In this document: in pieces, positions 4,462 through 27,490 of the stretch
Position numbering within the stretch: position 1 is the stretch's first letter
Layout: each line of letters opens with the position of its first letter
Virus record (IMG/VR): IMGVR_UViG_3300008339_000021
Location: 1 to 64,000 of that record
Origin: a virus
Reading direction: 5' to 3' (one strand)
Length of the DNA: 64,000 nucleotides
Position numbers and translations under genes: made by a program
Notes under the pieces: model-generated
What the model was told of the DNA's origin: nothing
The model's database searches: none
Seen by the model: only the letters and a program-made list of their open reading frames with translations

Positions 4462-4465
4462 AATT

Positions 4466-7387: not shown

Positions 7388-7389
7388 TT

Positions 7390-8903: not shown

Positions 8904-9044
8904 TCATCTACCTTGTGCTCTATAAGCTTTTTTGTAGTTTTTTGATCTTTTAGACTTAGAAGTTTTAGTTTTAGCATGTACACCTGGACGGGTTACTTTT
9001 ACTTTTCTATAAGTCCTTACTGTTCCTGTTGTTGCCTTTGCCAT
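8904..9044 (-). CDS. Small highly basic protein (46 aa; not in the ORF track)
   Basis: Translated by hand: MAKATTGTVRTYRKVKVTRPGVHAKTKTSKSKRSKNYKKAYRAQGR*. It starts 6 nt after the stop of the 2543-aa gene and ends at the terminator. Confidence 0.75.
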   Translation of the reverse strand: MAKATTGTVRTYRKVKVTRPGVHAKTKTSKSKRSKNYKKAYRAQGR

Positions 9045-9050
9045 TATTTA

Positions 9051-12000
9051 TTATTTTAATTTACCTGCACTTTCAAATCCTTCTAATGCCTTATCTACTT
9101 GACCTGTGTTACCATTAATACCAACACTCTTAAGTAAGTGACCTATAACTTTTGGTGACCCCTCTTGTTGCCAGAAGTATTCACCCTCTTTTCTACTATA
9201 GTATGCTTTATCATTAAATGTAATTAGTTGGAATACATCTTCAAATATTTTAGCATATAAACTAATGGTATTTCCAAATGCAGATGTAGTTGTAGTAACC
9301 ATTTTAATATAATCATCTGCTCCAAGGTTTACACCAGCAATTGTTGGTAGTGGAACAAATGCTGAAGTTTCAGCTTGTACACCTAATAATAATAAAAGCA
9401 TATGATTTTGAATAAATCCCCATGTTTTAAAGTCATCAGTAAATAAAGCTCCTGATCTTGCTCTAAGTTTATCAAATCTTTTCTTATCATCTGGATCATA
9501 ACCCCAAAGCATTGATGCAAGAAGAGCGGCAGTTATTATAAATAATCCTTCAGAAAGAGTTCTCATCAAATCTCTTTTTTGATCAAGTGGCATATAAGCC
9601 CAATACTTACCTTTACTTTTAATAAGTTCTTTCATTCCAAGATATGCATTTACATAAAAGCCCATAGTAGTTTTACCGGTCATCCAATCATATCTTTTTT
9701 TCATTTTTGGTTTCCAGAACTTACCATCTTCTATTTCTACTGCAGCTCCCCATCTGTTTGTAAGCATTGGTATAAACCACTTTCTCATGAATGTAAACAT
9801 TCTATATGGTAAATACATATTACCTTCAGCTTGAGCAAACTTATCATATGAACCATACAATCTGTGAGATACACCCTGAAATTTATTTCTAAACTGTTTA
9901 AATTTCTCAGATTTAGCAATTATAATTTCTTTACCTTCTTCAAATTCTATAGCACTAACAACTTTATTTCTTTGCTGAAGTTCTTCAACAGTAACACCAT
10001 ACATTTGAGCAATTTCTTCAAGTGTTTGACCTTTAACATACTCATGATATACTGTTCTATTATACCATGCTGGATCAACACCTGGTTTTAATTCAGCTAT
10101 ACCAGTATCTTTATTAAGTTGCCATGCATCTTTATAGTTAATAGTGATAGTCTTACCATTAGAAAGTCTTTGCTCTACTTTTTCAGCATTTAAAAATGCA
10201 CCAAAAAGTTGTAAAGCTGCTTCCATTTCAGCATTTTTTCTAATGTTGTACATCCACTCTCCATTCATAAGATCCTTTGACATGTTTCTAGAGACAGATC
10301 TTCCAAAGTCATCTTCAAATTTAAAGGCTGCATCAAACATTTCAATTATCTGAGATGATAATGCAGGAACACCTTTTGTATATACACTCTTAGCTACCCA
10401 CTCTAACATAGCTGGAGTAGCCCATAGTTTACCTTTTCCTAAATCTTTTACAGTAATAAATCCACCACCAGCTGATTCAATAATATTTTGTACTATCTGA
10501 CCATATCTGTTTTTTAAATCTGAAGGTAAGTTTACTGCTAGTGAAGCTCTTGATGATAGCTTTTGTAGTTTGCCAATAAATTTATCTAAGTAGACAGAGC
10601 TTCCCTCACCGCTATATTGTTTACCATAGTATTCTCTTTCAATAAGAGATCTTACTTGGCCGGCTCTATTATTAGTAGCACCCGGTTTTACAGTATGAGT
10701 AAGTTTACCTTTTATCCTATTTATAGTTTTACTATAAGTGTTAGGAGTCTTTGGTGCATTAGCTGGATCCTCTAATGTATCTAGTATAGAATTAACAAGA
10801 GGAAGAGTTTGTAATAATTGTGACTGTTGTTCAAGAGATAGTAAATACTTAAACATTCCTCTAACAACATCTGGATCAGTATTATCTATATCTAGATTAT
10901 ATAATCCAGTTACCGGAATATATGAAACTTCTTCAGAATTTAAATCAGTATTTACAAGTCTATACTCTTGAAGATTATTATCTCTTTCATAGTTGTGTTC
11001 TAATTCAACTTCATCTACAGACTTACCCCAAGCATCTCTTATTGACTGACCAATACCTTTTTTAATCTGAGAATATCTTTCACCTAATTTACCAGCTTGT
11101 AATCTAGATAGGTTATCTCTTAATACATAGCGTGGCATATCTAGATATAACTTAGACTTATTAGACTTATCTTCTTGAAATGAAAGATGAGCTTCTTTCA
11201 TTACCTCAAGGAGTTGGAATCTTACACTATTTGGTTGATCCTTAAGCCTCATGTAATCCTTGTTAATGTATCTATCATCTTTAGCAGAATTAGGATCATT
11301 TACATTAGTAAATAATCTTGGAAGATATTGACCTTTATTGTCAATGTGTACACCAACTTGTAATTCTACTTCACCTGTCTGAGGATTGTAACCTGTTCTA
11401 TATTTATCTTTTATTCTATAAATAGAGTGTCTAGCATTAGGTAAACCATTAAAGGTTTCTTCTTCTCCTGTTAGCTCATTAAGCAATACAGTTTTTTCAT
11501 AGTACTCTGGATTCTTTGGAACAGACAAAGAATTGGCCATAGTTCTTTCATACTTGACTTCAATTTTTCTAGTCTTTCTATTTTTAACCTTTCTAGAAAC
11601 GTGATTAACTCTAAACCAATCTACTAGTTTCCCATCTTTTTCTAATAGGGCTTTCATTTCATCACTGTTGATGAAATTAGTTGCATCTTCAACATTAATT
11701 GGTGCAACATTTAATCTCTGCAAATGCTCATTTAATGCATCAACATAATATTCAGTAGGTATCTTTTGAGTTAATGAAGATAAGTCAGCATAAATACTTT
11801 GCATAAGAGCCACTTCACCTACAGATAAACCAGTCTTAGCTTGTTTTTCCAACAATGTTCTATATCTTAACTTTTGTTCTGGTGTTAGTTTTGCTGGATC
11901 TTTTTTACTTATAGCAATATATAAATCAAGTTCTTCAGACTCATCTCTAGAAAGTCCAGTTTTAGTATCAAATTTAGCTTTGTAATCAATAATTTTTTGA

Positions 12001-15000
12001 TTAAGCTCTTTAATTGTTTTTAACTTATCTACACCTAACTCTTCTGGAATAGGTTGACCCTGCTCATCTTTATAAGCATACATTAAGTTATAGATTTCAC
12101 TATAGGCATTGCTGATATCAAAATCTTCTTCTATTACAGTATTAACTTTTGATTGTAAAGCTTTAAGTTTAGTAATCAAGTCTTTTCTAGAATTATAAAA
12201 GTCTTCAGTATAAGCAACTCTTAAATTTTGCTTTACCCATTCTTTTTTAGCTTCTTCTATTTCTTCAGGAGTAGCTCCTTCTTGATCCTTTAAACTTAAA
12301 AATTCATTAAATGCAGTTTGTAAAGAGCCAGCTCTTGGGATAAACTCATAATAGTCACCGGTACTTTCTCTATGTTCAAGAAGTATTCTAGTAATAGTTA
12401 AGTCATAAATACCATTGATTGGATCATCTACTTTATCACTACCATCAGCATACTTTAATGAATACAAATTTTTGTAATCTTGCCAAAGTGACTGAAGTGT
12501 AGAATATTTTTGAAATCTTTCTAGCTCATCTGTTAACTCATTTGATTCATTGTTATATGCATCAAGAGCCATTTTTCTTGCAAGCCATGCCATCTTTCCT
12601 ATATCACCATACTTATCAAACACACTATCTTTTTGATAGACTTCTTGAATGTACTCATCATGCATATAGTCTCTTTTAAAAGCTCTATATTCATCAACAG
12701 CAGTTCTAATTTTTTCTTGATCTTCAGATGACCATGCCTCATCAATTTTATATTCAAGTAAATCCTGAACATATCTCCAACCATTTCCAAACTCATTCAA
12801 AAAAGTTAATATTTCTTTTTCAACTGGCTTTTTTGTTTTAGGATCTACATAAAGTATTTTATCCTTAAACATTAATAAGTCTACTAATTGCCTTGTTTTT
12901 AAAGTACTATAACCTATTTTTTCTAAAAGTGGTTGAAGCTTTTTTCTAAATTGATATGACTTTTCCAGGGCCCTGTTATTAGCTTCAGTTATCTGATCAT
13001 TAATAAAAATAGCTAATCCACCTACTATAGGGTCATTACTAGAAGTATAGCTCTCAAAGAATCTGTTAAACCAACTTACATCTTTTAATTTACCTGACAG
13101 ACCATCAGTAATTGTATCTTGATTTAGCAAAAACTCTTTATAGTCATCAATAAATTTCTTAATGTATTTAGATTCAATTCCTTTCTTTTCATACTTTGCA
13201 TACAACTCATCTAAATCTTGATCTGTAAATGATTGTTTGATAACACCATTGTATAATTCTTCAATCTCCGAAACAGATAGTTTATTAGTTAATGCATTTT
13301 TTAAATTATTTCCAAGTTCTTGCATTAGGAAATCATTCATATACCCAGTGACTTCTACATAAAAGTTGACACTGTTTTCTTGATAGATATCTCTAATTTT
13401 TTTGTCTGCTCTGAGTAAATTATTCTTTGTCTCATTAATGAGATCTGTTAGTTCATTTGGTTGAGTAACATCAAAATCATCTTGCTCAATTAAGAATTCA
13501 TCAAATGTGTTAAACATATCATTCCATGATCTAATTGAGCTTCTATATAAAAAGAGAAGAGCTACAGCATCCCTAGAGTTAAACTCTTTTGTTTTCTGCA
13601 TTCTATTTAGATCACTAAATATATTCTGAGAAATATTATTGACTACAGCAACACTATTAATAAAACTTCTAGCTCTGTTAGTAAGATCTTGAGTTCTTGC
13701 TCTTTCAGCTTCAACTGTATTTTTGATTATCTCATCAACAGATAGGTCTTCATAGTTAGTTATTGTTTGAAAGCCAGCTAAACTTCTTTTTATTCTTGGC
13801 AATAGTTCTTTAGTACCTTTTACAAATAATGCTTCTTTAAGCATTTTCTGATACAAAGGTGATCTAGTTTTAAAGTTTATTGCCTTTTCATAAATTAATT
13901 GATTAGTAGCAAACAAGTCATTTATAGATTCTTGAATTTTATCAGCCTTAACATCTTTTACAAGTCTGTTAGCCATGTCTTTAATTTCCCTAGCAAAAGC
14001 TACTATGTCTTCATTTTTTATGGCTTCAACATTATACTCAAAAGTATCTGTCAATAACATTTCTGCTAACTTATCTATCTTTGTATTTACATTAATGTCA
14101 GCTACCTTTACTTTAGAGCCAAAAATCTTTTTAAGTAAGTCTTTTAATACACTTAATAATTTACCTATAAATGACTCAAATCCTTCTGATTCAATTTGAT
14201 TAGTTACCTGATTAGCTGCTTTTCTTTGTAAAGCATATGCTAAAGTTTCCTCCATAAAGAGGGGATTAAGTTGCCTTTCCCCATTTGCATCTATAGTATA
14301 CTCAGGTAATTCTGGATAGTTTTTTATAACATGATCTCTTATTATCTGACCTTCAGTAGTTGCCATCAAACTATTATAGAGATTGGTAAATAGAGTTTTG
14401 TTTTCTCTATAGATTGCTCTCAATAGTGGGTGGGATAATTCATGGAGTACTGTATCAAAATTTACATTGTCTCCTACTATGTATACAGCTCCTCCAAAAA
14501 AGAATGCTGGTTCTCCATTATATTTTTTCTTTCTTGATTCAAGAATTTGTCTAGCTTCTTGCTCAGTTACATACATATACTGAACACCTAATGATTCAGC
14601 AATTTTTTGTCCTAATGCATCTGCAGCTTCTTTTGCTCTCTCATTATTTATTTTTCCTTCATCAACTGTTAAATCACTTTTGTCAGGCATATTTGTAAAA
14701 TGATCATCTGCAAAAGTAAAATATCTAAAACCTCTATTAGTAAATTTATATTTGTCTTCAAAGAAAGGTTGGAAGTATATAAGATCTGTTAAGTCTTTAC
14801 CTCTACCCATGTTTATTTTTGCTTCAAAGATTTGTTTCCAGTCTTTATAGTACTGATCAAATATTTCTGGATAATTTCCTTCTTGGGTTCTTAAAAAGAA
14901 ATCAAGTACATATCTCTTAGGTCTAGTAACCATATTGGGAACAATTTTTCCCCCATAACTTGCTAATCCATCTTGTACAGTTTCTGTTTCAGTAGGATGT

Positions 15001-16673
15001 TCAACATAACCCGTAATTGTAATTGACTCTCCCTTCTTATGATCTTTACCAATAAAGGCAGTATCAAAATTCCAACTAGGAAATTGTTCTTTTAAATTTT
15101 TATACCAAGATTGTGCTTCAAGATATGGTAAAACTTCTTTTTTAAAAGTTTCAGAATTTTTTCTGCTCCTAGCTTTACTTAATGGTAAGCCTCTTTCTTC
15201 AATCCATTTAAGGAACTGAGCTGCATTTTTCTCACTGTTAAATTGCTCAAGACTAATAACACCATCAATATCATGCAGATCTTCAGATATAGCTCTTACA
15301 ACTCTACCATACTTTCTTAATACTAATGAGCCACTAAGAAAGTATTCAAATGGAGAATTAAATAATTTTTCTACAATCCCTTTAGCAAATGGGTCTCTAT
15401 TTAAACTTTGATTATAATACTTTTGCTCAAACTCTTCTCCCTTGCTTGAAAAGAACTTACCATTTGAATCCTCATAGTAACTTCTAATAAACTTCTCATA
15501 GTTCTTTTTATAAACATCATCAACAATATCTAAGACAGTGTCTCTTAGTTCAGCTTCCTTGTATATAGTTATAGCTTTATTGTCCTTAATATTTGCTTGC
15601 CACCAGTTCCATAGTTTATTGAACATTCTAATAATCCAATTTTCAGCATATTTATCTTTGTAGCCTAAACTTTCAAAGTATTCTTTGCTTATATCAGGAT
15701 TTTTTCTTTTACTACCATCATATCCATTTTCAACACCAACAACTAACATACCGGCAATAAACTCAATAATTACTTGCCTGTGTGCATATGGGTTAAATCT
15801 AGCTGGGTCATATTTGTAGATTTCTCTAACTGTTTCTGCAGCCATATCTCTCTCACCATATGGTGTAACTTCTTCCGCAGTTTGTTCATCTTCTACTTCA
15901 AGCCTTCTTGTATTGTATTTATTGTACAATTCATCATATCTGCTCCAGCTATTTATACCTTTCCAAAGCTCTAAACCAAGTTTAGATTTTTTACCAAGAA
16001 ATTGAAATATAACATTTGCAGACTGCATAGCTAATGTCTTGTCTGATACATTTCTTTTAAGTGCCATATACTTTTGAAGTATATCAAATGCAGCTAAAGG
16101 ATCCTCTTTTGTTCTTCTTACACCATTCTCATCAATCCAAGTTCTTCTATCTGAACTTATTATTTCATCAAGATCCTGATCAATTTTAATGTTTAATCCT
16201 TCCATGAAAGAAATAAGACTAGTTCTTAGTCTATTACTAAACTCCCTATTTAAAGATGAATTATTAAAGTTATCCCTCATAAACATAGGGTTTAAACTTT
16301 CATCATCCTCAAAGTTTGATACAGGTTCTTTTAGAATATCAAAGTCTTTAGTCTCTTCTTTTATTTCTTGTTGGATTCTAACATCATCAAGTATTTGGAA
16401 TAACTCATCATTTGGTTGAGCATAAAGTGTAACATTTATGTCATCCCTATAGAATCTAGATGAATATGGATATCTTGTTTGAACCTCATATGGTTCATTG
16501 AAGAAAGAATCATTTTCTTCAAGTTTTAGATTTGGATACTTGAGCTGTATAAATCTGGTAAATTCTTCATTAAATTTATTAAATTCAATTGGATCCAATA
16601 TATCATTGAATTCACCAAGTATACCTCTCTTTTTTAAATCTTCTAAAACTGTTGACCTAGATTCACAAAACAT
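9051..16673 (-). CDS. Giant virion cargo/ejection protein (~2540 aa) with nucleotidyltransferase, HExxH metallopeptidase and LysM modules
   Basis: The likely start is MFCESR at 16673, overlapping the RNAP stop as TAATG. Motifs: LSGSLVL...DLHDID...K-x4-RGKDLTD, VLHELSHP, and LysM-like YVKGQTLEEIAQMYGVTVEELQQRN. There are hydrophobic helices near the C-terminus. Its position next to the virion RNAP matches crAss-like phages. Confidence 0.8.
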   Translation of the reverse strand: MFCESRSTVLEDLKKRGILGEFNDILDPIEFNKFNEEFTRFIQLKYPNLKLEENDSFFNEPYEVQTRYPYSSRFYRDDINVTLYAQPNDELFQILDDVRIQQEIKEETKDFDILKEPVSNFEDDESLNPMFMRDNFNNSSLNREFSNRLRTSLISFMEGLNIKIDQDLDEIISSDRRTWIDENGVRRTKEDPLAAFDILQKYMALKRNVSDKTLAMQSANVIFQFLGKKSKLGLELWKGINSWSRYDELYNKYNTRRLEVEDEQTAEEVTPYGERDMAAETVREIYKYDPARFNPYAHRQVIIEFIAGMLVVGVENGYDGSKRKNPDISKEYFESLGYKDKYAENWIIRMFNKLWNWWQANIKDNKAITIYKEAELRDTVLDIVDDVYKKNYEKFIRSYYEDSNGKFFSSKGEEFEQKYYNQSLNRDPFAKGIVEKLFNSPFEYFLSGSLVLRKYGRVVRAISEDLHDIDGVISLEQFNSEKNAAQFLKWIEERGLPLSKARSRKNSETFKKEVLPYLEAQSWYKNLKEQFPSWNFDTAFIGKDHKKGESITITGYVEHPTETETVQDGLASYGGKIVPNMVTRPKRYVLDFFLRTQEGNYPEIFDQYYKDWKQIFEAKINMGRGKDLTDLIYFQPFFEDKYKFTNRGFRYFTFADDHFTNMPDKSDLTVDEGKINNERAKEAADALGQKIAESLGVQYMYVTEQEARQILESRKKKYNGEPAFFFGGAVYIVGDNVNFDTVLHELSHPLLRAIYRENKTLFTNLYNSLMATTEGQIIRDHVIKNYPELPEYTIDANGERQLNPLFMEETLAYALQRKAANQVTNQIESEGFESFIGKLLSVLKDLLKKIFGSKVKVADINVNTKIDKLAEMLLTDTFEYNVEAIKNEDIVAFAREIKDMANRLVKDVKADKIQESINDLFATNQLIYEKAINFKTRSPLYQKMLKEALFVKGTKELLPRIKRSLAGFQTITNYEDLSVDEIIKNTVEAERARTQDLTNRARSFINSVAVVNNISQNIFSDLNRMQKTKEFNSRDAVALLFLYRSSIRSWNDMFNTFDEFLIEQDDFDVTQPNELTDLINETKNNLLRADKKIRDIYQENSVNFYVEVTGYMNDFLMQELGNNLKNALTNKLSVSEIEELYNGVIKQSFTDQDLDELYAKYEKKGIESKYIKKFIDDYKEFLLNQDTITDGLSGKLKDVSWFNRFFESYTSSNDPIVGGLAIFINDQITEANNRALEKSYQFRKKLQPLLEKIGYSTLKTRQLVDLLMFKDKILYVDPKTKKPVEKEILTFLNEFGNGWRYVQDLLEYKIDEAWSSEDQEKIRTAVDEYRAFKRDYMHDEYIQEVYQKDSVFDKYGDIGKMAWLARKMALDAYNNESNELTDELERFQKYSTLQSLWQDYKNLYSLKYADGSDKVDDPINGIYDLTITRILLEHRESTGDYYEFIPRAGSLQTAFNEFLSLKDQEGATPEEIEEAKKEWVKQNLRVAYTEDFYNSRKDLITKLKALQSKVNTVIEEDFDISNAYSEIYNLMYAYKDEQGQPIPEELGVDKLKTIKELNQKIIDYKAKFDTKTGLSRDESEELDLYIAISKKDPAKLTPEQKLRYRTLLEKQAKTGLSVGEVALMQSIYADLSSLTQKIPTEYYVDALNEHLQRLNVAPINVEDATNFINSDEMKALLEKDGKLVDWFRVNHVSRKVKNRKTRKIEVKYERTMANSLSVPKNPEYYEKTVLLNELTGEEETFNGLPNARHSIYRIKDKYRTGYNPQTGEVELQVGVHIDNKGQYLPRLFTNVNDPNSAKDDRYINKDYMRLKDQPNSVRFQLLEVMKEAHLSFQEDKSNKSKLYLDMPRYVLRDNLSRLQAGKLGERYSQIKKGIGQSIRDAWGKSVDEVELEHNYERDNNLQEYRLVNTDLNSEEVSYIPVTGLYNLDIDNTDPDVVRGMFKYLLSLEQQSQLLQTLPLVNSILDTLEDPANAPKTPNTYSKTINRIKGKLTHTVKPGATNNRAGQVRSLIEREYYGKQYSGEGSSVYLDKFIGKLQKLSSRASLAVNLPSDLKNRYGQIVQNIIESAGGGFITVKDLGKGKLWATPAMLEWVAKSVYTKGVPALSSQIIEMFDAAFKFEDDFGRSVSRNMSKDLMNGEWMYNIRKNAEMEAALQLFGAFLNAEKVEQRLSNGKTITINYKDAWQLNKDTGIAELKPGVDPAWYNRTVYHEYVKGQTLEEIAQMYGVTVEELQQRNKVVSAIEFEEGKEIIIAKSEKFKQFRNKFQGVSHRLYGSYDKFAQAEGNMYLPYRMFTFMRKWFIPMLTNRWGAAVEIEDGKFWKPKMKKRYDWMTGKTTMGFYVNAYLGMKELIKSKGKYWAYMPLDQKRDLMRTLSEGLFIITAALLASMLWGYDPDDKKRFDKLRARSGALFTDDFKTWGFIQNHMLLLLLGVQAETSAFVPLPTIAGVNLGADDYIKMVTTTTSAFGNTISLYAKIFEDVFQLITFNDKAYYSRKEGEYFWQQEGSPKVIGHLLKSVGINGNTGQVDKALEGFESAGKLK

Positions 16674-19600
16674 TACATACAATTTAATGGGTTATTCTCT
16701 CCTTCAAATTTAGCTAATATTTCTGCATCTGTTACAGGTTGATATTTGGCTACCTCTGAACTTACTTCTTTTGCAAACTCCGATCCTGGGTTAAGATATT
16801 GGAATTCTTCAAAAAGTCTTCTACTTAAATATACAAATAATTCTTTTGGCATCAAAGCAGGATCTCCATATCCATTAATAGAAAATGCAACTTTACCTCC
16901 TTTTTCTATTACTTGATTGATTTCTGCAATAGCAAGTTCTATATCAGCTATCCTATTATCATAGTACTTTTTATCTAGAGTAGAGAAAGCATCGGATACC
17001 TTATCTAAACCAGTTACTATACCTACAGAAGAACTATTAGCTATTTTTTTAAGTAGCACTTGCCCTTTAAGCTTTCTTTTATTAAACTCTTCAGGTGTCA
17101 TTTTTTCATATGCTTCTTTTTGTGCTAAGCTTAATTGATAGATAAATGTAATGTCTTGATTATTATCAACTATATACTGGTATGCTTTTTCACTTCCAGA
17201 AAGATCATTGTATACAAATACATTAGCACTAATAGTTGGTATAAGATTTTTTCTTTCTACCAGCCTTTCTGCATTTTCTATGTCTTCAGCTGTTATTGTT
17301 TCTGAATCTGGAATTTTTGAAAGTACATACTGTGTATCTATAGATTTCTGAACATCTAGTCCTGTCAAATAATTTTTAAATCTATACTTGTCTCTATTTG
17401 TTTTACTGTTAACTTGTTCAAACTTATTTTTAAAATCAACAAGCATTTTAAGTTTTACAGGAGATTCTAAGAACTTAGCAGTCTCATCATTCATTACATC
17501 AATAAACTTATCAAAGTCAGTTAAGCTTAGGAAGTTGTATTTACTTTTATTAGTACCTGATTGCAGCATTGCAATGTATGTAATCTTTGCAAAGAAGTCA
17601 CTAATTCTATCATTCTCATCTTTATCTTCAACCTTTTTTACAGCCCTATTTGAAAGCTCTTCAAAATTTCTTGAATATAAATTAGACTTAAATGATGTCA
17701 TGTCTTTATCATCTATATAAAGATTAAACATTGTCTTAGATTGATTAGTATCTATTACTATTCTAGATAGTACAGGATAATTATCAAAAAGCTCAGTTCT
17801 GTATTGAGTCTTAAGCCTTTCTAATCTAACAGCATATGCATTTTCTTTATCATTAAATAAATGATATGGATTCAATGTGTTATCTAAAGCTCTACTTGCT
17901 ATAATTTTTTCATAAGTGTATCTTCTATTTTCTGTTTCCACACCTCTTACACTAGTCTTTTTTACATTTTCAAGTTCTTTTTTAAACTCTTGTGTTTTTA
18001 CAACTTCATCAAAAGGCATAACATGTCTTAGATACTCTCTTTCTACAACAAATCTGATATATTCTTCTTTGTTAGAAGCTACATTACTTCCAAAATGACC
18101 TGGCTCAAGAGCATATAATCCTCTATCCTCATAACTATTTTTAGCTTCACTTCCTCTTAGATAAGACTTGTCAAAGAATTCTTTTTCAATTTGAACTCTA
18201 TCAACCACCATAGTTGGCCCACCAGCTGTATCTACAACCCGTGCACCAAACTTAAGTCCTGCAGCAGGTGTAATTTTAATATTGTCACTTAGGGCATAAG
18301 AGCTATATTCTTTTCCAAGACTATATTTTCTTAGTGTATTTTGGAACAAATAACTTAAAATATCATTTCTAAATACAACTGGGAATATATCACGATAGTT
18401 ATATCCAAATGCAGCTTTTAAAATTTCTGCATTTTTAAAATCAGAAACATAAGATTGTATATAATCTTGTATGTCTTCATCATATCTAAACTTGAATAAT
18501 GGTTTTGCTAAACCTTTAACAAGTTTTGAATTAAAGAAAGAACTAATAATTGAATCATTAATCATTCCTAACCTTAGATCTTGATCTATTTTAGTATTTA
18601 GTGCTAAAGCCTCAATATTAGATTCAGCTTGAATAGCTTGTCCTACATCAGTGTTAAGAGCTGTATCAGGATTAGAAGCCATCTTTAATGCTGTGATTCC
18701 TTCAATTTGTTTTTCTATAGTAAGATAATGCAAGAACATTGTTCTTGATAAGTCACTACTAGCTTTTTCAGGATTATTTTTACTTTCTGTGATTAGATTA
18801 AGCATTTCTTCTTTAGTGAAATGTTTGTTATCTTCACTTCTGTTTTTAAAATATTCATCCATCATATTCTTACCAACAGTATATCTTACTTGGTCATCTG
18901 CAAGAAAGTTCTTAAAGTTTTTAGATATAACATTGCTGGCTGCTTTGAAAGATACTCCTAAATATCCTGGGTCTCTTCTTAATGGTTCTGCAAATGTACT
19001 TTGTGCAAGTCTCTTTTCTTTTACATAGTCCCTAACAAGTGGTTGTGATACAAAGTAAACTGCTTCTTCTACTGGTACTCCTGTCTTAAGTAAGTAAAGT
19101 AGTATAGGTGCAACTTCATAGTTACCCTGCACAAAGAATATCCAAGCATCTTTTTCAACATCCACCCAACCGTTTATTAATTGGGATATAACATCAGCTA
19201 TTTTATTTACACCATCAACATCATACTGATTAGACAATGATATAACATCTTGTCCATTCTTTTTTGTTGTGTGATGTCTTAAACCTAAGAATGATATTCT
19301 ATTCATTTCTTCATCACTGTGTTTATACACAGGAGGCATTGTTGCTCCTAATGAATTAAATATAACATTGAATGTATTTTCAATAGCACCAAGTCCTAAT
19401 GTCTTCTTACCAACAACATTTGATTCATGTTTGTATAAGTTATAACCTACTTCAAAGATTCTTGTTGGACTAATAACTTCTTTTTGCTTACCACTTTTAT
19501 CTGGAGCTGAAAGATTTGGTACAAGGTTTCCATCTTTATCTTTAGTCATCATATTTTGTAATGGACTATAATCCATTACTGATTGTGCTAATCTATCTGC

Positions 19601-22600
19601 TATAGGTTTAACAAGATAAGTTCCGTTAGGAGTTGTAAGAGATACAAAATTTTCTGGTAATTCAAGAATACTTCTTATGTCATTGATCAGTGCATTCTCA
19701 AGACCAGCCTTTTGCATAGCATACATCTGCTGCTTAGTCATATCATATTTTGCTGGATCTTTGAGTGCATTATAGAATTCCTCTGCATTTTCAAACATTG
19801 TCTGTTTAACATTGCCATCAGAATCAATGTTATTCATGAATATAGATAACTTATCAATATCAAAGTCAGCTCCTGATTTAGCAACTATTTCTGCTGGAGG
19901 AATGATAATATTACCAGCTTCTGCTGGAAGGAAGTGATATACTTCCATAAATTCCATAGAGTTCAAACCCTGTACTGGAATCCTAACTCCAACCATAGTT
20001 ATTGCTTTTCTGTTATTTTTATCATTTGCATCTAACCATTCATCATCTTTGATAGCTTCATTAAGTCTATCAATAGTTCCTATTGGTTCACCTTTGTATT
20101 CTAGATTTAATAAACTCTCATAATCACCTTGAAGAGATATGGCAACTTTCATTGCTGTAGTTTTACCATCAGCTCCTCTATGATATGTAGGTAAAAAGTT
20201 AGAGCCCATATATTTTTTAACTGCAGTTTCCCGTGCAGCAGGACTCATCTTATCTAAATCAATTGGCAACTCAAATAAACCATCATAGAAAGCAGATGAT
20301 TTCTGTACTAATGGTTCTCCCTTAACTTTTTGTTTAATTATTCTTTTATTGATCAATGACAATAAAAGTTTTTCAATCTTCACAGCCTCTGGGTGTAGAG
20401 ATAAGTCAAATCTTAAATCTCCCTCATCAGTTACATCAATGATGTCTATTAGATTGTCACTATATACATCATCTCTTGTAAGAGTATCCCGAATCATTTT
20501 TGCAAGCTTTGCAATACTGTCTTTATTTACTGGAATAAATTCTCCACTTTCAGTTTCTTCAAACCCTAGTTCATCAACTAATTCATTTTTAAGTAACTCA
20601 GTATACTCAGATACCCTGTTTACATAGTTTTCAATTAGCTTAGTATGTTTTTTTATGGTTATTTGACCATTTTCATACATTCCTTCTAATACTAACTTTC
20701 TTAACTGAGTTGAGAATATTGATTTTTGTTTATACTTTGAGTTTACTTCAGTTTGATTTTTAAGGTATTCTGCAAAAATTACATTCTTGGTTAATGTAAC
20801 TGAGGTATCTATATTTCCATTTTTGTCCACAATGTTATCACCTGAACCAAAATGTCCTACCTTTTCACCAGATTCCATTAATACATAATCAATACCTTGT
20901 TTCATCATCATGTCATGAATCTGACCCAATCTAGTATTGGCAGTATGCACTGTAGGAATCAATGGAGCTAATGAAAATTTATGAAAAGATGTTAATGGTA
21001 ATCCAGAAACTTTAATGTTACCATAGTACTGTAATTTATATGGTGGAAAGTATTCTCTAATTTCAGAAGCTGTAATTGTTTCATTATTTACAATTCTTTT
21101 ATATAAGTTTTCCTGTTGAGTAGTCCAGTTACCTTCTAGATTTTTTAACATCTTATATGCTTCAAATCCTATCCAACCTTGACCATCAGCAATTTTCATA
21201 TCACTGTAGTCTTTAAGAACTATTGTTGCAAGTTCTTTTGCAAGTCTTTCTGCTTCAGCTTTAGATTTACCAGCTTTTAAATACCTTTGTGTATAATCTT
21301 TAACGTGAGCATCATAGTATTCTGACTTATATTTAGATTCCCCTATCTCTTCTTCTTTTATAATAGCTGTGTTAAGTGTACCATCATATGGTCTAAATTC
21401 ATAATTATATTTTTCAGCATAAAGTCTTTCATACATAGGGCTGTTGATATACATCCTTGCTCTATAATCTGCACGGAATCCTCTACCACCAGAACCTAAA
21501 CCAGCATTTCTCTTATGGAACTCTTCTTTGTCATGGTTATACTGTACTGTATCTCCATATGCCAAAATGGTTGTTTCAAAGTTATGTATCCAATAGTTAT
21601 AGGTGTATGCTTTAACTAGCATTTTATCTACTTGATCTTTACTAAGTTCTTCAGAAGATACCATATCATATAAACTTTGGTCTATATATCTAGCATCTTC
21701 TAATCTACTGTAGTTTTGTTGTGTTTGAGCATTAAAATATTGAATGACATCATTTTTAATTTTTCTTCTTAATTCAGGATTCTCATTAACAATATCTTTA
21801 AGATTAAAATCTTCAGGATTAAAATAACCAGTCTCTAATGCATCTTCCATAGTTTTATCTATCAATGCATATAGATCACCTTGTACTTCAGCAGATAAGA
21901 CATCATCAAATGCTGTAAATGCTTCACCGGCTTTTACAGTTTGACCATTATCTTTTCTTACTACATTTCTATTATAGGCTGAAAATTTTCCAAAGTATTC
22001 TTTATTTGATTTGAATCTGTAAATCCTACCAGCTTCTGCTGCAATGTAACCAAGTAACACATTAAATGCTTCTGACTCTCCTAGATTATTATTTGCTGTA
22101 GTATTACTTGGACTAAATGCCATGATATCTACATAAAGATTGGTGAGTTTTTTGCTTGAATAAGTATTTACTTTCTTAGCTCTTAAGTTCATTGCTGTTT
22201 GCTTAGAAGCATGTCTCATGAACTCCACAACACCTGATTGTAGCATTGTATGCATTTCCTGTAAGAACTTACTTGTTACATCTGTATTTGCAGTTGATGT
22301 TCCAGTAGTTTCATTATTCTCTCTATCAATAATTTGAGTACCTCCAATATTTTCTAATAACAATTCAGCACCTGGAAACTTTTCACCATAGTTTGGTGAC
22401 ATTGGATTTAAATCAAAAATAGAATTTAATACTACAGAAAATGCTGAAGAAGGATTATTCTCTTCAGACAACCATCTCATGTGTTGGAATCTACCATTTG
22501 GATCAGCTTCTTTCATAGTAAGCTGTTGCCAAGAAGAAGCTTTATTTATTGAAGTTACAATTCTTGTTACTGTATTATCTAAGAACTGTTCCCATACTCT

Positions 22601-25600
22601 ATTCTTTTCAGGAGTTAATACACTGTAGTTTGAGTATCCATCTGAAAATCTATTTTGTAATTGTGCAAGTGTTGTAATTTTAGATCTAACATCTCTTGCT
22701 TTTCCTCCAGCAGCATCAACTATTGCTTTTGGCATTTCATTCATCAAATAATATAGAGGCTGTCTTTTAAAATCCTCTGCTGCAGCCATTAGTCCAATAT
22801 CATTGGACTTACTAGCTAAGTATACTAATCTTACATTATCATATATAAAATCAATATTGTATCTAGAAGCAAATGGTTTTTCTTTATTTCTAACAACATT
22901 TCTAATATCAGCACTTGTCATATCTAATTGGATACCAAGAGCTGCAAGAAACTCACCTGCTTTGTTAGGATTAAGCTTTTTGTCTAATGTAAATTCTTTA
23001 ATAACCTCATTAACATTTAAGTAATTGTTTCCACCATCCTTTTCAATAAATCTGTTGGTAACAGAATCAGCAACATTAAAGTTTGTTGTCCAATCATTAA
23101 TGATTCTATAAATATCAAAGTTAGCTGCAGCAAGTCTAGCTTCATAGATTGATTTCTCTGGTATTCTTTTACCATCAATTTGTTTAGCTTTCTCTATAAC
23201 AGTTTTATTTATATTTAATTGAATAAATGGAATAACCGGCTTCTTAAGATCTTGCCAGAAATTAGTTTCTGATTTAAACTCTGTGTTATTATTATAAGCT
23301 AAAGGTCCAAATTGATATGGGTTTGGTAATATTTCAAGAACTTGAATAAACTCAGGATAATTTTCAATTGAGTTTTTCATTCTATCATACATATCAAGAA
23401 AATCCATAGAGCCCTGTAAAGTTCTTGCTAATCTAGCCCACATTACATCTACTGGTTCTAGCATTGGAAGACCAAAGTCATCTGTTTTTACAGAGTAGGT
23501 TTTAACTCCATTTTCATTTTCTTCAATTAAATAATCCCCATTCTCATCTCTATTAAGTTGGTAGATTCCAGAAAGCATCATCATTGTATCATCAGTTGCT
23601 AACTGTTTAGCAGAAATAGAATTACCTTCTTCTGTTTTAAATAAAGCTACTGTAGCATCTTCTGTATCATCATTATAGGCATCTTTCAAAATATTAAATC
23701 TTGATCTTTGCATGTGAAATGCAACTACACCTTTATCTGTTTTTTTACTTAATGCCTCATCAACAACACCATAATTTTCCACTGCTTTCATCAAAAGATC
23801 AAGCTTTGCCATCTCTTTTTGTTCAGCTACAAAATCAGGATTTTTATTTGTGGGGTCTGCATTTGCAATAGCAATACTTTGTGCAACTTCTATTTGATTA
23901 TCAAGTAAAACATTTAACTGTTTTTCTATATTACTATAAAGTTTTTGTCTATTAGTTATATCACTTAAAAGTCTTACTGCTCCACTTGTTGTACCGTATG
24001 TAGTATTATATTTATAGAAGGTTCTAGCCATTAATGAATCCATAAGATCCACAATCTTATTAGACTGAACATCAGTAATTTCAGTAAAGTCTTTGCCAGT
24101 ACTTGTGATTGGTTGTATTGTTTTCTTTGCACTATTCAATCTTTGAAAACCAGGCATTAAGTTATGCTCAGCATTTTCAGTATCAACTGTAAAGTTTCCG
24201 GTATAAAGATTATTATAATATTCTTTTACCATTGGTATATCATACAATCTTGTTACATCTCTCTTAGTTGTTTTACCAAAGAAGAAATCAATAATCTTTT
24301 TGATTTTATTAAATATGGTCTGAATAATACCAGATTGTTTTTTACCATTTACAGCATAGTCAATAAAGTCTTCAGCTAAATCTTCTTCAATTTCTATAAA
24401 TTCTTTATTGGCCCATTTATCAAATGTTCTAATATGGTTATATAATGCTGTCTTTTCTTCTATTGTTAGAACCAACTGAGAGAATGCATGCCATGCTTCG
24501 TGATATAAAGTAATTGGTTGGGCATCTCCATATAGTTCTATTCTTGCTGCAAATCCTTCTTCTCTAAGTTTATTTGCTGCATCAGATAAAAGAGATCCTG
24601 CAGAAAGAAATGTACCATATGCTGAAGAGTTAAATACAAGAGCCAGTCTTTCAACATCTACAACACCTTTTAAAGGGGACTTATCAAACCATGCATTTAC
24701 ATCTTCCCAAGCTCTAGCACTTCCATAGAGTTGATTCATAACAGAAGCAGCTCTTTTATTTCTATCCATACCTGGAAGATCAGGTATTAAATCAGTACCA
24801 TTTAGTAAATCATCTATAGAAATTTTATTAATTTTTCTATCTTGAACTTTTTGTTGCTCTACTGTTTTAGCTGGTATAGTTGGTTTAGCAGGGACAACAG
24901 TTGATGTATCCACTGGTTGAGTAACTTTATTTGCAGCTTTCTTATAAGTTTTAGTTGACTTGCTAAGAAATCTAGATAGAAAATCTGCTTTAGTATTCTT
25001 AGTTGATTTTGAACCTGAAGCTAAATATGGAGCTTGAGTTCTTAATGCATAACCTGTAAATGCTCTAATCTTAACTGGTATACCTAATTTTTTTGCTGCT
25101 TTGATTGAAGCTTCAGCAATACCGGTTTGACCATTACTAATGATCTTAGATATTGGATAATCCTTTACAACCTCTTTTAAGATATTATAAATATACTTAT
25201 CTATTTCTGCTTGAGTGTAACCATCTTTAGCAAGCTGTGCAATATCATTACCAACAATATTTACAACATTACCTTTCATTTTAGAAAGGTTACTTACCAT
25301 TAAATCAATAGCATTTTGTGGAGGAATTAAATTTTTTGGAGCTTCACTTTTAGAACCAATTTTTAATCCATACCATTTGTTTACTGCACCAGCTCTTTGT
25401 TGTACTAATTTTTCATCAGGAGTAGTAAACTTTGTTCCTAATCCAAATACTACATCTGCTTCATTTATATTTGCTACAAGAGTTTTATCATTTGGAAGAG
25501 TAGATTGTTTAGTTTCTATTGTAAACTTTACTCCTTCTTCTTCCTCTTCTTCAACTTCTTCTTTTTTAACTTCATCTTGAGTACCATTATCTACATCATC

Positions 25601-27490
25601 AGAAGTTAAATTACTTTCTTTTGGTATACCTATATCAATCTGTTCATCCATTGGAGTTTCTAAATCTATAGGGACAGCAAATTCTAAATAAGCATTGACT
25701 CCAGCAAAATAACCAACATCACCTATTGTATAATCTACTTTAGCAAGAGGCTTAATAAAACCAAAATAATCTTTTTGTACTTCTTTTATTATTTCTATGC
25801 CATCTTTATTTTGATTGATTTCATAGTCAGTAAATCTTACACCTTTTTGTATTGCACCATCCTCTGCAAATGATTTCATGTAACTCATACTAGCAGGATA
25901 ACTAATTTGAGTTCCATCATTTTTAGTTATAACTTTTACTTTTTTAAGATGATTGCTAATTATACTTGCCGCATCATCTTTTTCTAAATCAACAACAGTT
26001 GATTCTCCAGTTAATGGATCTTTTATAGTTACAGAAAGTTGATTAACACCTAATACTTCATTTATTTCAACATTAATATTATTTGTCTCAACTCTATTAG
26101 ATAAAAAAGTATTGTAGTATTCCAGCTTTGCTTGTGGACTTAATGGTTCTCCATTTAATAATCCTTTAGTTGCTAGTATTTTACCTAGGTTGTCTGCAAG
26201 AGATTCTGGCATGTCCATTTTTTGCAAATAAATTTGACTATTAACAGCAACACCAGCACTGAATTTGTTTACCATGAAAAAACTATAACCCTCTTTTACA
26301 CCAGAGTCATAAGTATAGATCATAGACAAATCATCAGCAAAATTTGTATTAGATATTAATTCAGATTTACGTTCTACAATACCAAAGCTTCCACCTGTAA
26401 TAGGTAATAAGACAGGTTCAGTACTTGTACTAAGTCTATCATTTAGCCTTAGTAGATCATTCATTTTTTGTTTTTGTGTATTCTTTATTTTATTTAGGAT
26501 ATCTTGTCTCTCTTGTTCACCATACAAGTTACCTTCTGCAATACCTTCTTTAATTTCTCTTGCAGCTAATGTCTCAGCAGGTATTAATGTATATAAGAAA
26601 CCAGATCTATTTCCTAAATATAATTTGCCACCTTGATTAACAACTGGTCTAATGTACTGGTATACAATTCTACCACCTGTTTCTACAATATTACTATTCT
26701 CATCAAATCTAATTGGATTACCTTTTGCATCAGAGATGATGGCAATATTAATATCATAAGTTCTATTCTTACTTAAGAAAGTCTTATCATAGTTAGTTAA
26801 ATCATCAGGATTCAAATCTCTAATGTTCTGAGCTCTAAGCATGATTGCTTTGTCCCCTAACATTACATTATCATTTATATCCTTTTTCTTAGCTTGTACT
26901 ACTGCAGTTTTAACTACTTCAAAAAATAATTTTTTATCCTGGTCTTCTTGATTTCTTTCCTCCTCCGTCATCTTATCAGGATTTTTTGCAATAGCAACAT
27001 TATCAGATGTTTTATCTGGATAATCTACTTTTGCTTTTTCCTGCACAGCTGACCAATTTGGTTGTGCATTATTATCATTATTTTGTACTACATTCTTAGA
27101 AGTCTTATTGCTCTCTTTAATTTTTTTATCAACGTCTTTCTTTGTTTTTGTAGTAGTTTTTGGAGTAACAAACTTTAATACATTTTTAGGATCTTCAAAT
27201 TCCAATGATAAGTCTTGTAAATAGTCAAAACTTAAACCAGCATCTTGTCTTAAATACTTTTTAATTTCAAGATCATTCTTAACTAAATCTAATATATCAG
27301 GAACAGCTTGTGCATAAAGAAGACCATTTGGTTCATCTTTAAATTCTTCATAGATCTCTCTAATGAATTTATCTAATGCTTTATTATCAAATTTACCTAG
27401 TTTAGGATCATTCATCCTATCAAGTATTTCTCCACGGACTATTGTATATAAAGCACTTATATCATTTTCAGTATAGAGTTGACAAGCCAT
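16673..27490 (-). CDS. Virion-packaged single-chain two-barrel RNA polymerase (crAss-like, phi14:2 gp66-type), 3605 aa
   Basis: Catalytic GADFDIDKL at about 19853-19868, preceded by RIPVQG and ADGQGWI. The N-terminal part carries HEAWH and a SLOG-like SNGQTG segment. Confidence 0.9.
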   Translation of the reverse strand: MACQLYTENDISALYTIVRGEILDRMNDPKLGKFDNKALDKFIREIYEEFKDEPNGLLYAQAVPDILDLVKNDLEIKKYLRQDAGLSFDYLQDLSLEFEDPKNVLKFVTPKTTTKTKKDVDKKIKESNKTSKNVVQNNDNNAQPNWSAVQEKAKVDYPDKTSDNVAIAKNPDKMTEEERNQEDQDKKLFFEVVKTAVVQAKKKDINDNVMLGDKAIMLRAQNIRDLNPDDLTNYDKTFLSKNRTYDINIAIISDAKGNPIRFDENSNIVETGGRIVYQYIRPVVNQGGKLYLGNRSGFLYTLIPAETLAAREIKEGIAEGNLYGEQERQDILNKIKNTQKQKMNDLLRLNDRLSTSTEPVLLPITGGSFGIVERKSELISNTNFADDLSMIYTYDSGVKEGYSFFMVNKFSAGVAVNSQIYLQKMDMPESLADNLGKILATKGLLNGEPLSPQAKLEYYNTFLSNRVETNNINVEINEVLGVNQLSVTIKDPLTGESTVVDLEKDDAASIISNHLKKVKVITKNDGTQISYPASMSYMKSFAEDGAIQKGVRFTDYEINQNKDGIEIIKEVQKDYFGFIKPLAKVDYTIGDVGYFAGVNAYLEFAVPIDLETPMDEQIDIGIPKESNLTSDDVDNGTQDEVKKEEVEEEEEEGVKFTIETKQSTLPNDKTLVANINEADVVFGLGTKFTTPDEKLVQQRAGAVNKWYGLKIGSKSEAPKNLIPPQNAIDLMVSNLSKMKGNVVNIVGNDIAQLAKDGYTQAEIDKYIYNILKEVVKDYPISKIISNGQTGIAEASIKAAKKLGIPVKIRAFTGYALRTQAPYLASGSKSTKNTKADFLSRFLSKSTKTYKKAANKVTQPVDTSTVVPAKPTIPAKTVEQQKVQDRKINKISIDDLLNGTDLIPDLPGMDRNKRAASVMNQLYGSARAWEDVNAWFDKSPLKGVVDVERLALVFNSSAYGTFLSAGSLLSDAANKLREEGFAARIELYGDAQPITLYHEAWHAFSQLVLTIEEKTALYNHIRTFDKWANKEFIEIEEDLAEDFIDYAVNGKKQSGIIQTIFNKIKKIIDFFFGKTTKRDVTRLYDIPMVKEYYNNLYTGNFTVDTENAEHNLMPGFQRLNSAKKTIQPITSTGKDFTEITDVQSNKIVDLMDSLMARTFYKYNTTYGTTSGAVRLLSDITNRQKLYSNIEKQLNVLLDNQIEVAQSIAIANADPTNKNPDFVAEQKEMAKLDLLMKAVENYGVVDEALSKKTDKGVVAFHMQRSRFNILKDAYNDDTEDATVALFKTEEGNSISAKQLATDDTMMMLSGIYQLNRDENGDYLIEENENGVKTYSVKTDDFGLPMLEPVDVMWARLARTLQGSMDFLDMYDRMKNSIENYPEFIQVLEILPNPYQFGPLAYNNNTEFKSETNFWQDLKKPVIPFIQLNINKTVIEKAKQIDGKRIPEKSIYEARLAAANFDIYRIINDWTTNFNVADSVTNRFIEKDGGNNYLNVNEVIKEFTLDKKLNPNKAGEFLAALGIQLDMTSADIRNVVRNKEKPFASRYNIDFIYDNVRLVYLASKSNDIGLMAAAEDFKRQPLYYLMNEMPKAIVDAAGGKARDVRSKITTLAQLQNRFSDGYSNYSVLTPEKNRVWEQFLDNTVTRIVTSINKASSWQQLTMKEADPNGRFQHMRWLSEENNPSSAFSVVLNSIFDLNPMSPNYGEKFPGAELLLENIGGTQIIDRENNETTGTSTANTDVTSKFLQEMHTMLQSGVVEFMRHASKQTAMNLRAKKVNTYSSKKLTNLYVDIMAFSPSNTTANNNLGESEAFNVLLGYIAAEAGRIYRFKSNKEYFGKFSAYNRNVVRKDNGQTVKAGEAFTAFDDVLSAEVQGDLYALIDKTMEDALETGYFNPEDFNLKDIVNENPELRRKIKNDVIQYFNAQTQQNYSRLEDARYIDQSLYDMVSSEELSKDQVDKMLVKAYTYNYWIHNFETTILAYGDTVQYNHDKEEFHKRNAGLGSGGRGFRADYRARMYINSPMYERLYAEKYNYEFRPYDGTLNTAIIKEEEIGESKYKSEYYDAHVKDYTQRYLKAGKSKAEAERLAKELATIVLKDYSDMKIADGQGWIGFEAYKMLKNLEGNWTTQQENLYKRIVNNETITASEIREYFPPYKLQYYGNIKVSGLPLTSFHKFSLAPLIPTVHTANTRLGQIHDMMMKQGIDYVLMESGEKVGHFGSGDNIVDKNGNIDTSVTLTKNVIFAEYLKNQTEVNSKYKQKSIFSTQLRKLVLEGMYENGQITIKKHTKLIENYVNRVSEYTELLKNELVDELGFEETESGEFIPVNKDSIAKLAKMIRDTLTRDDVYSDNLIDIIDVTDEGDLRFDLSLHPEAVKIEKLLLSLINKRIIKQKVKGEPLVQKSSAFYDGLFELPIDLDKMSPAARETAVKKYMGSNFLPTYHRGADGKTTAMKVAISLQGDYESLLNLEYKGEPIGTIDRLNEAIKDDEWLDANDKNNRKAITMVGVRIPVQGLNSMEFMEVYHFLPAEAGNIIIPPAEIVAKSGADFDIDKLSIFMNNIDSDGNVKQTMFENAEEFYNALKDPAKYDMTKQQMYAMQKAGLENALINDIRSILELPENFVSLTTPNGTYLVKPIADRLAQSVMDYSPLQNMMTKDKDGNLVPNLSAPDKSGKQKEVISPTRIFEVGYNLYKHESNVVGKKTLGLGAIENTFNVIFNSLGATMPPVYKHSDEEMNRISFLGLRHHTTKKNGQDVISLSNQYDVDGVNKIADVISQLINGWVDVEKDAWIFFVQGNYEVAPILLYLLKTGVPVEEAVYFVSQPLVRDYVKEKRLAQSTFAEPLRRDPGYLGVSFKAASNVISKNFKNFLADDQVRYTVGKNMMDEYFKNRSEDNKHFTKEEMLNLITESKNNPEKASSDLSRTMFLHYLTIEKQIEGITALKMASNPDTALNTDVGQAIQAESNIEALALNTKIDQDLRLGMINDSIISSFFNSKLVKGLAKPLFKFRYDEDIQDYIQSYVSDFKNAEILKAAFGYNYRDIFPVVFRNDILSYLFQNTLRKYSLGKEYSSYALSDNIKITPAAGLKFGARVVDTAGGPTMVVDRVQIEKEFFDKSYLRGSEAKNSYEDRGLYALEPGHFGSNVASNKEEYIRFVVEREYLRHVMPFDEVVKTQEFKKELENVKKTSVRGVETENRRYTYEKIIASRALDNTLNPYHLFNDKENAYAVRLERLKTQYRTELFDNYPVLSRIVIDTNQSKTMFNLYIDDKDMTSFKSNLYSRNFEELSNRAVKKVEDKDENDRISDFFAKITYIAMLQSGTNKSKYNFLSLTDFDKFIDVMNDETAKFLESPVKLKMLVDFKNKFEQVNSKTNRDKYRFKNYLTGLDVQKSIDTQYVLSKIPDSETITAEDIENAERLVERKNLIPTISANVFVYNDLSGSEKAYQYIVDNNQDITFIYQLSLAQKEAYEKMTPEEFNKRKLKGQVLLKKIANSSSVGIVTGLDKVSDAFSTLDKKYYDNRIADIELAIAEINQVIEKGGKVAFSINGYGDPALMPKELFVYLSRRLFEEFQYLNPGSEFAKEVSSEVAKYQPVTDAEILAKFEGENNPLNCM

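Follow-up and report, generated by a model that had tools for sequence, protein, structure and literature searches.

A predicted Pol-beta-fold nucleotidyltransferase and its helical partner in a giant phage protein encoded beside a crAss-like virion RNA polymerase homologue

Does a giant phage protein whose gene adjoins that of a crAss-like virion RNA polymerase homologue contain a working enzyme and, if so, to which family does the enzyme belong and what might it do? The question is raised by the virus record IMGVR_UViG_3300008339_000021 (linear, 90,205 bases, completeness estimate 76%), the first 64 kb of which form the window analysed here. There a first-pass annotation had placed an AbiEii/MenT-like nucleotidyltransferase (NTase) inside a giant ejection protein. 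We find that residues ~421-660 of this protein (hereafter the host protein, numbered from a TTG start codon) are, by motifs and predicted fold, a catalytically intact NTase of the Pol-beta superfamily. The NTase is indeed embedded in a giant protein; what the first-pass annotation had missed is that it forms a fixed cassette with a mostly helical domain, N2, immediately upstream.

The four motifs on which the NTase was first recognized are all present within 14770-15400, and the domain extends slightly wider, to about 14703-15422 (Table 1). A phmmer search with residues 420-670 against 1.84 billion representative proteins returned 103 matches at E ≤ 1e-3, with 78 passing ≤ 1e-10 and 31 passing ≤ 1e-30, and among 102 aligned sequences G451, S452, R456, G459, R463, E467, H470, D471, D473, and D594 are each 100% conserved, as are K622, R627, K629, D630, and D633. 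The same conservation holds in a set of 36 sequences with identity down to 24%. A domain-only alignment of 23 sequences, reduced to <48% mutual identity and spanning 23-65% identity, keeps the residues G, S, R, G, R, E, H, D, D, D, F, K, R, K, and D without exception and D633 in at least 90%; the three Asp residues that had been taken as catalytic are therefore invariant in all three sets of homologues (102, 36, and 23 sequences). The full C-terminal motif is found in 164/166 family segments and G[GSA]...DxD/E in 166/166. Judged by these alignments, the two-metal NTase active site is complete and under strong purifying selection. The NTase profile finds one copy only in the 90-kb record, where a 2542-residue open reading frame (ORF) scores E 6.7 and is not detectably related.

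AlphaFold2 models the domain on the 36-sequence alignment with high confidence (predicted local distance difference test, pLDDT, 88.5; predicted TM score, pTM, 0.84), and an independent two-domain model of residues 195-665 (pLDDT 87.0, pTM 0.84) yields the same ranking of neighbours. The predicted elements follow one another as in a Pol-beta NTase: a strand, the hGS helix, the DxD strand, later strands ending at the third Asp, and two C-terminal helices. In model numbering, G451-S452 open the helix at residues 32-39 after the strand at 28-30, the Asp triad lies on the strands at 52-57 (D471, D473) and 160-179 (D594), and the C-terminal helices at 196-206 and 209-217 carry K622 and then R627, K629, D630, and D633. 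Two elements are added to the Pol-beta core: a three-helix insert, which is unmatched or gapped when aligned by hhalign with small NTases that we fetched, and a long hairpin (model residues 134-179), the length of which varies by ~50 columns among family members in the 23-sequence alignment. In a 140-residue fragment of a relative (P0154), the stretch past the hairpin start carries a precomputed mRNA_triPase (PF02940) label; this divergence could be a hairpin insertion or an assembly chimera.

Although a Foldseek search of the models against PDB and BFVD gave nothing at E ≤ 0.001, its best rows are NTases, namely JHP933 (E 0.03, probability 0.80), TUT4, TM1012, Pol beta, and small alarmone synthetases. 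A second look at the top 1000 Foldseek chains ranked ANT(2'')-Ia at 9.2, MenT1 at 8.8, LnuA at 8.5, TM1012 at 7.4, and JHP933 at 6.9, with Pol beta and lambda next at ~5.5 in the same structural ranking, ~3 Z units below the top rows. With VIA-align, the top 6 rows for the NTase model and the top 7 for the two-domain model are all NTases, and the lower rows hold polymerases beta and lambda, terminal uridylyltransferases, poly(A) polymerases, CCA enzymes, and Rel/small alarmone synthetases. MenT1 and MenT3 are among the top structural neighbours, a viral poly(A) synthase is close, and structural similarity is found to ANT(2'')/LnuA, over the whole enzyme, and to the solved AbiEii/MenT members. 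The Pol-beta fold expected from the motifs is thus predicted with high confidence, by models that match solved NTases, and on these models the domain lies within the structural group that shares the C-terminal K...R.KD..D helix pair, which comprises ANT(2'')/LnuA, MenT/AbiEii, and TM1012/DUF2204/DUF6036.

Attempts to assign the domain to a family by sequence were unsuccessful. No NTase model in Pfam, NCBIfam, PHROG, or PADLOC matches the domain or the whole protein. The AbiEii model PF08843 (cut-off 22.5 bits), which recovers 58/121 Bacteroidota genomes, has no match at E ≤ 10 in the protein, the domain, or the six-frame translated genome, and matches 0/36 relatives at E ≤ 1; the six-frame genome likewise gives nothing at E ≤ 10 with PF23942, PF10706, or PF19502. 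When the 36 relatives were scanned singly, Polbeta (E 0.02) and NTP_transf_2 (E 0.067) each matched one member and DUF7277 (E 0.087) matched 2/36. Searches of PDB sequences with phmmer and two profile searches retrieved no NTase from the domain, and the whole protein had no match.

Profile-profile comparison and motif counts were made with 31 AbiEii ORFs from Bacteroidota genomes and 9 small NTase ORFs found with PF10706. By blocks, hhalign places hGS/DxD in register with the AbiEii ORFs (P 6e-4, 28.7%) and aligns the C-terminal motif without significance (P 0.26); against the small NTases, the three motif blocks are colinear (P 0.0013-0.0045 overall) and the C-terminal block reaches P 1.3e-4 (53%). 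The four clearest PF10706-like ORFs give the weakest comparison (P 0.03). No full-length profile link is significant by HH-suite standards, which counts against the assignment: the family alignment meets the 31 AbiEii ORFs at a probability of 6.5% (P 0.0057), and the comparison with the small NTases reaches 7.7-18%. The hhalign figures are weak either way because the comparison alignments are shallow.

Spacing of the C-terminal motif is more telling. The first-pass annotation had treated K..R.KD..D as a signature of AbiEii/MenT (DUF1814), and the MenT papers describe a C-terminal "motif IV" as unique to DUF1814. The exact K-x4-R-x-KD-xx-D spacing is absent from the AbiEii ORFs (0/31) and present in 4/9 of the small DUF2204/DUF6036/PF10706-like NTases, and an element similar to motif IV occurs outside DUF1814 in the sequences that we fetched; a looser pattern with a K-to-R gap of >10 residues, as against 4 in the phage family, fits 12/31 AbiEii ORFs. 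The motif therefore marks a clade wider than DUF1814. The name "AbiEii/MenT-like" is too narrow, as ANT(2'')-Ia and LnuA tie with MenT1, PF08843 does not match, and the hhalign probability is low; the evidence does not place the domain in AbiEii/MenT proper. We read the NTase domain as a family of its own within the wider ANT(2'')/LnuA, MenT/AbiEii, and TM1012/DUF2204/DUF6036 group. The 9 small NTase ORFs straddle the Pfam models PF10706, PF08843, PF19502, PF09970, and PF14907, so these five families overlap; in two Bacteroidota loci (L078 and L079), the scores of small NTase ORFs against PF10706, PF08843, and PF19502 are similarly weak. At the level of sequence, the Pfam borders between small NTase families are blurred. 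Two archaeal contigs from metagenome-assembled genomes (MAGs), L005 (~3190-3900, plus strand) and L041, encode ORFs of ~230 residues with AK[LI]xMGRxKD in which N replaces the catalytic D pair; these weakly DUF6036-like ORFs (E 0.0045) are probably inactivated NTases.

The differences from the known members of this group extend beyond sequence. PF08843 matches the DUF1814 toxins MenT1, MenT3 (TglT), AbiEii, and JHP933, and does not match the phage domain. AbiEii and MenT are stand-alone toxins of toxin-antitoxin pairs with an upstream antitoxin gene, whereas the phage NTase is part of a giant, putative virion protein with a helical insert, a hairpin, and N2, and is flanked by the virion RNA polymerase gene and a strand switch; the antitoxin-less arrangement also holds in related viral loci. 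ANT(2'')-Ia and LnuA, which are stand-alone resistance proteins of 160-180 residues acting on small molecules, share 12% sequence identity with the phage NTase in structural alignments, and the ANT(2'')-Ia model PF10706 (cut-off 21 bits) has no match in the phage protein or genome. The small NTases of the TM1012, DUF2204 (PF09970), DUF6036 (PF19502), and NTP_transf_5 kind, ~160 residues long and found in bacteria and archaea, lack the insert, the hairpin, and N2, all three of which the phage domain has, and none of their hidden Markov models matches it.

The partnership with N2 is a constant of the family. With a jackhmmer profile, N2 is found directly before the NTase in 173/191 NTase-bearing stored proteins, and the pairing holds whether the NTase lies at residue 950, 1680, 2010, 3110, or 4850 (for example, N2 at 2945-3119 and NTase at 3111-3339). 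N2 and the NTase are thus a fixed cassette of ~450 residues at the N-terminal end of a zincin-bearing giant protein; in the search with the two-domain model, no solved-structure row spans N2. The zincin-like region behind the cassette is a separate module. A word-indexed search with residues 400-820 found 131 proteins, and the 120 listed are 1821-2995 residues long; by BLASTP, the NTase segment occurs in 103 and the HExxH segment in 87 of these 120 listed matches, and since 33 proteins have only the NTase and 17 only the HExxH segment, the two modules are independent.

We further examined 31 viral contigs from IMG/VR (24-226 kb) on which relatives are encoded. In 21/31 of these loci, an ORF of at least 2,860 residues immediately precedes the host ORF, and in 17/31 the large ORFs that come next are on the other strand, as in the window. 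In one locus (L097:2-17698, plus strand), a single frame of 5,899 residues fuses the NTase-bearing ORF with the polymerase-side giant ORF. In 9/31 loci (L108-L114, L117, and L098), the cassette stands alone as an ORF of 579-693 residues, ending ~35 residues past the NTase; these ORFs sit at about 9005-10800 of their loci and are followed by an ORF of 1853-2008 residues, and in L116 the split falls at 1168 residues instead. That the protein is naturally cut just behind the cassette argues that the cassette works as its own unit, and suggests that database proteins of 575-689 residues may be complete. One relative of 1193 residues (P0127) has a CCA-adding/poly(A)-type head (PF01743, residues 239-364, 2.9e-23) and an HD domain (residues 469-575, 1.4e-11) followed by N1, N2, and the NTase (residues 949-1188), so that two different NTases share one polypeptide. 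Other relatives of the giant protein carry ART-PolyVal, a PIF1-type helicase, or GNAT.

The family looks viral. Protein searches, species-representative genomes, and a profile search of 119-489-residue proteins (9 hits) turned up no stand-alone bacterial relative, and for this reason the proposal that a toxin-family NTase had been captured from a host finds no support. A motif pattern scan gave 40 loci, only 2 of which hold real relatives, both on MAG contigs: L008 (a Saccharibacteria bin) and L039 (a Dehalococcoidales bin) encode full relatives (E 8.8e-78 and 2.8e-81 in a local search) and are probably phage sequences binned with bacteria. A plasmid match at E 1 is at chance level, under a HAD phosphatase gene, and was rejected. 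The literature that we covered on crAss-like phages, nucleotidyltransferases, and cargo or polyvalent proteins, supplementary tables being outside this coverage, does not describe the domain; the one nucleotidyltransferase mentioned in a paper from this coverage is a CCA tRNA nucleotidyltransferase gene.

Table 1. Features of the NTase cassette, the host gene, and the adjoining gene (positions in the window; residues of the host protein counted from TTG)
Feature	Residues	Nucleotides	Strand	Basis or remark
Pol-beta-fold nucleotidyltransferase domain	~421-660	14703..15422	-	motifs, homologues, AlphaFold2 model
FLSGSLVLRKYG	448	15341-15306	-	string located in translated ORF
hG-S motif	G451, S452	15327..15332	-	begins helix after strand 1; invariant
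DLHDIDGVI	468	15281-15255	-	string located in translated ORF
D471-I-D473 metal-binding pair, strand 2	471-473	15264..15272	-	invariant E467, H470 precede
Three-helix insertion, between DxD strand and rest of sheet	~478-533	15084..15251	-	helices at model residues 59-114
Long beta-hairpin, ends in third catalytic acid	~553-598	14889..15026	-	strands at model residues 134-157, 160-179
YVLDFF	591	14912-14895	-	string located in translated ORF
D594, third catalytic carboxylate (in YVLDFF)	594	14901..14903	-	invariant
AKINMGRGKDLTDL	621	14822-14781	-	string located in translated ORF
C-terminal helix pair, K622-x4-R627-x-K629-D630-xx-D633	622-633	14784..14819	-	invariant; D633 at least 90%
N2, mostly helical domain, immediately upstream of NTase	~200-419	15426..16085	-	jackhmmer; AlphaFold2 model
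Zincin-like region	~670-860	14103..14675	-	HELSH at residue 747, nt 14430-14444; separate module beside NTase
LysM motif, near C-terminus	2217-2243	9954..10034	-	PF01476 E 1.1e-4, 22.5 bits (cut-off 20.9); phrog_1274 too
Sole hydrophobic, transmembrane-like segment	2376-2394	9501..9557	-	Kyte-Doolittle window scan
Host gene		9051..16682	-	2543 residues from TTG; last gene of giant-ORF virion/cargo operon
Upstream gene, crAss-like virion RNA polymerase homologue		16673..27490	-	3605 residues; match to 6VR4

How the cassette would reach a cell is suggested by the gene that precedes it. The 3605-residue upstream protein matches 6VR4 chain A ("DNA-dependent RNA polymerase") over residues 2070-2823 (phmmer E 1e-23), and its identity as a polymerase follows from this match, as a DxD[GA]D regular expression found no match in it. 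According to the accessible text of the preprint 10.1101/2020.03.07.982082, 6VR4 represents gp66, the virion RNA polymerase of the crAss-like phage phi14:2; this polymerase and the proteins on either side of it are present in virions, the three are one fused polyprotein in some phages, and the neighbour gp65 carries a zincin-like protease domain; the fusion in L097 fits the polyprotein remark. Like gp65, the host protein adjoins the polymerase gene and has a zincin-like HExxH; unlike gp65, for which the same accessible text mentions no NTase (10.1101/2020.03.07.982082), it has one. The HExxH is retained in 103/113 homologous stretches, the HELSH-containing region is found in 87/120 relatives (among the matches listed), and this region is probably the zincin-like domain of gp65-type proteins, with no match to a Pfam peptidase model; orthology of the host protein to gp65 is inferred from position and motif. 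Because it adjoins the virion RNA polymerase homologue and keeps the gp65-type HExxH, we read the host protein as plausibly delivered by the virion. An ejected virion protein is a reasonable inference, in keeping with the ejection protein of the first-pass annotation. Against delivery it must be said that the case for packaging is drawn from position and motif only, and that tblastn with the whole host protein and with the NTase segment found zero relatives, and hence none from a cultured phage, in 50,697 phage records.

The gene order of the window agrees with a virion module. Further upstream on the minus strand, PHROG models recognize genes for the portal (8.7e-96) and the major head protein (1.4e-29), followed by more structural-module genes and then nine large ORFs of 542 to 3605 residues, with the host gene last. 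Downstream of the host gene lies a strand switch, and the plus-strand block at 1-8595 encodes an HNH endonuclease, an ATPase, an exonuclease, and a DNA polymerase. ARAGORN finds zero tRNA or tmRNA genes in the whole 90-kb record. For the host gene, an ATG at residue 4 (nt 16673) is a likelier start than the TTG; it overlaps the upstream gene's stop codon and yields the 2540 residues of the first-pass annotation; a database protein (P0002) that is 99% identical also has 2540 residues. At 16671-16675 on the minus strand, this ATG and the stop of the 3605-residue polymerase gene share one base, an overlap that suggests coupled translation. The host protein has one cysteine only, at residue 6.

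The host protein, moreover, has the make-up of a polyvalent protein, joining the NTase, the conserved HExxH region, and LysM in one giant polypeptide. LysM is its sole above-cut-off Pfam match and no PolyVal-specific model matches it; ART-PolyVal, the hallmark of the class, occurs in relatives only. In PMC5512222, the Pol-beta NTases of polyvalent proteins are minimal four-strand domains of conjugative elements, said to be absent from phage-type polyvalent proteins. They too sit within giant multi-effector proteins of mobile elements; the domain described here is larger, phage-borne, and of another sub-group.

What, then, would the enzyme do? We propose that the phage probably injects it by way of the giant protein next to the virion RNA polymerase. 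The giant protein would travel in the virion and leave it together with the DNA, as has been reported for the phi14:2 polymerase and its two neighbours; the cassette would then be released, either through the neighbouring zincin domain or through refolding alone, and would be active in the first minutes of infection. Catalysis would use a two-metal mechanism via D471, D473, and D594, with the phosphates of a nucleoside triphosphate (NTP) held by K622, R627, and K629, and would transfer a nucleoside monophosphate (NMP) to the 3'-hydroxyl of an RNA end. The prime candidate substrate would be the tRNA acceptor end, as for MenT, and the second the 3' end of early transcripts from the co-injected polymerase; the enzyme would serve host take-over or counter-defence, not self-poisoning. 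Nucleotidylation of RNA 3' ends by the cassette is our best guess, and we would be about equally unsurprised to see it confirmed or refuted.

We lean to an RNA 3' end because MenT1 and MenT3, which are reported to extend tRNA acceptor 3' ends, are top structural neighbours and a viral poly(A) synthase is close, and because a CCA-adding-type head and HD stand upstream of the cassette in P0127. The insert, the hairpin, and the helical partner would suit a macromolecular substrate and so point the same way, and we count for RNA the 9/30 language-model matches that fall in clusters partly labelled Poly_A_pol_cat. Several observations pull in the other direction. The best two structural neighbours modify antibiotics, the CCA-enzyme fusion is one protein among ~200, and the isoelectric point (median 6.35 over 166 segments, 7.05 for the segment in the window) is no pointer to nucleic acid, although bulk charge and isoelectric point do not separate an RNA-binding from a small-molecule enzyme. 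Furthermore, since the record has no tRNA genes, blanket poisoning of tRNA would also harm the phage.

The antibiotic-modifying neighbours raise the alternative of a small-molecule NTase like ANT(2'')-Ia or LnuA, which would disable, by adenylylation, an anti-phage metabolite of the host or a nucleotide that signals in immunity. We consider this unlikely: PF10706 does not match, the hhalign comparison with PF10706-like ORFs is the weakest, the three-helix insert, the long variable hairpin, and the obligatory 200-residue helical partner look more like a platform for a macromolecule, and no candidate small molecule is known.

A macromolecule could also be a protein. MNT-type NTases have been proposed to NMPylate toxins, and the cassette might AMPylate or UMPylate a host protein, such as a defence toxin, or a phage protein injected alongside it, for instance the RNA polymerase, whose gene it adjoins in viral loci. 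Relatives of the giant protein do hold other protein modifiers (ART-PolyVal and GNAT), and PMC5512222 classes polyvalent Pol-beta NTases as protein-modifying, with NMP transfer to protein predicted; those NTases, however, are the minimal four-strand ones of conjugative elements that the same text says are absent from phage-type polyvalent proteins. With nearest structures that are RNA- or antibiotic-modifying enzymes rather than MNT, and with NTP_transf_2 and Polbeta matching weakly and in 1/36 members each, we hold protein NMPylation to be just as improbable as small-molecule modification.

The RNA 3'-end reading itself has a narrower form, in which the cassette is the partner of the injected polymerase, a tailing enzyme of the poly(A)/poly(U) type that would mark or stabilize the earliest phage transcripts or label host RNAs for degradation. 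This form is suggested by the cassette gene directly following the polymerase gene in 21/31 loci, with fusion in one, and by the Poly_A_pol_cat labels among the language-model matches; we regard it as a long shot. If it were true, the crAss-like particle would carry a self-contained transcription and RNA-processing kit. Poxviruses and giant viruses carry such a kit in their particles.

Finally, a non-catalytic relic, serving as a structural or packaging module with motifs kept for folding only, is very improbable: a scaffold role is conceivable in cargo proteins, which reportedly must unfold to pass the tail, but the residues for two-metal catalysis and NTP binding are invariant down to 23% identity while their surroundings diverged, the motifs persist in 164/166 (full C-terminal motif) and 166/166 (G[GSA]...DxD/E) segments, and decay looks different, as in the two archaeal ORFs that share the C-terminal motif and lost the acidic pair.

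Pol-beta NTases, and effector domains inside giant phage proteins, are already known; what is new is an uncatalogued NTase family whose partner domain and whose position next to the crAss-like virion RNA polymerase are both fixed. This conserved cassette shares a structural group with tRNA-poisoning toxins and antibiotic-modifying enzymes, yet four libraries miss it, and its natural split forms of ~590 residues are a ready expression construct. To our knowledge, the cargo of crAss-like particles besides DNA and RNA polymerase is largely undescribed. The family corrects the published generalization of PMC5512222 that NTases are absent from phage-type polyvalent proteins. According to published abstracts, crAss-like phages include the virus that is most abundant in the human gut. 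Should the cassette prove to be injected and active, it would be a novel effector of early infection, and its substrate would reveal how crAss-like phages take over or disarm their hosts.

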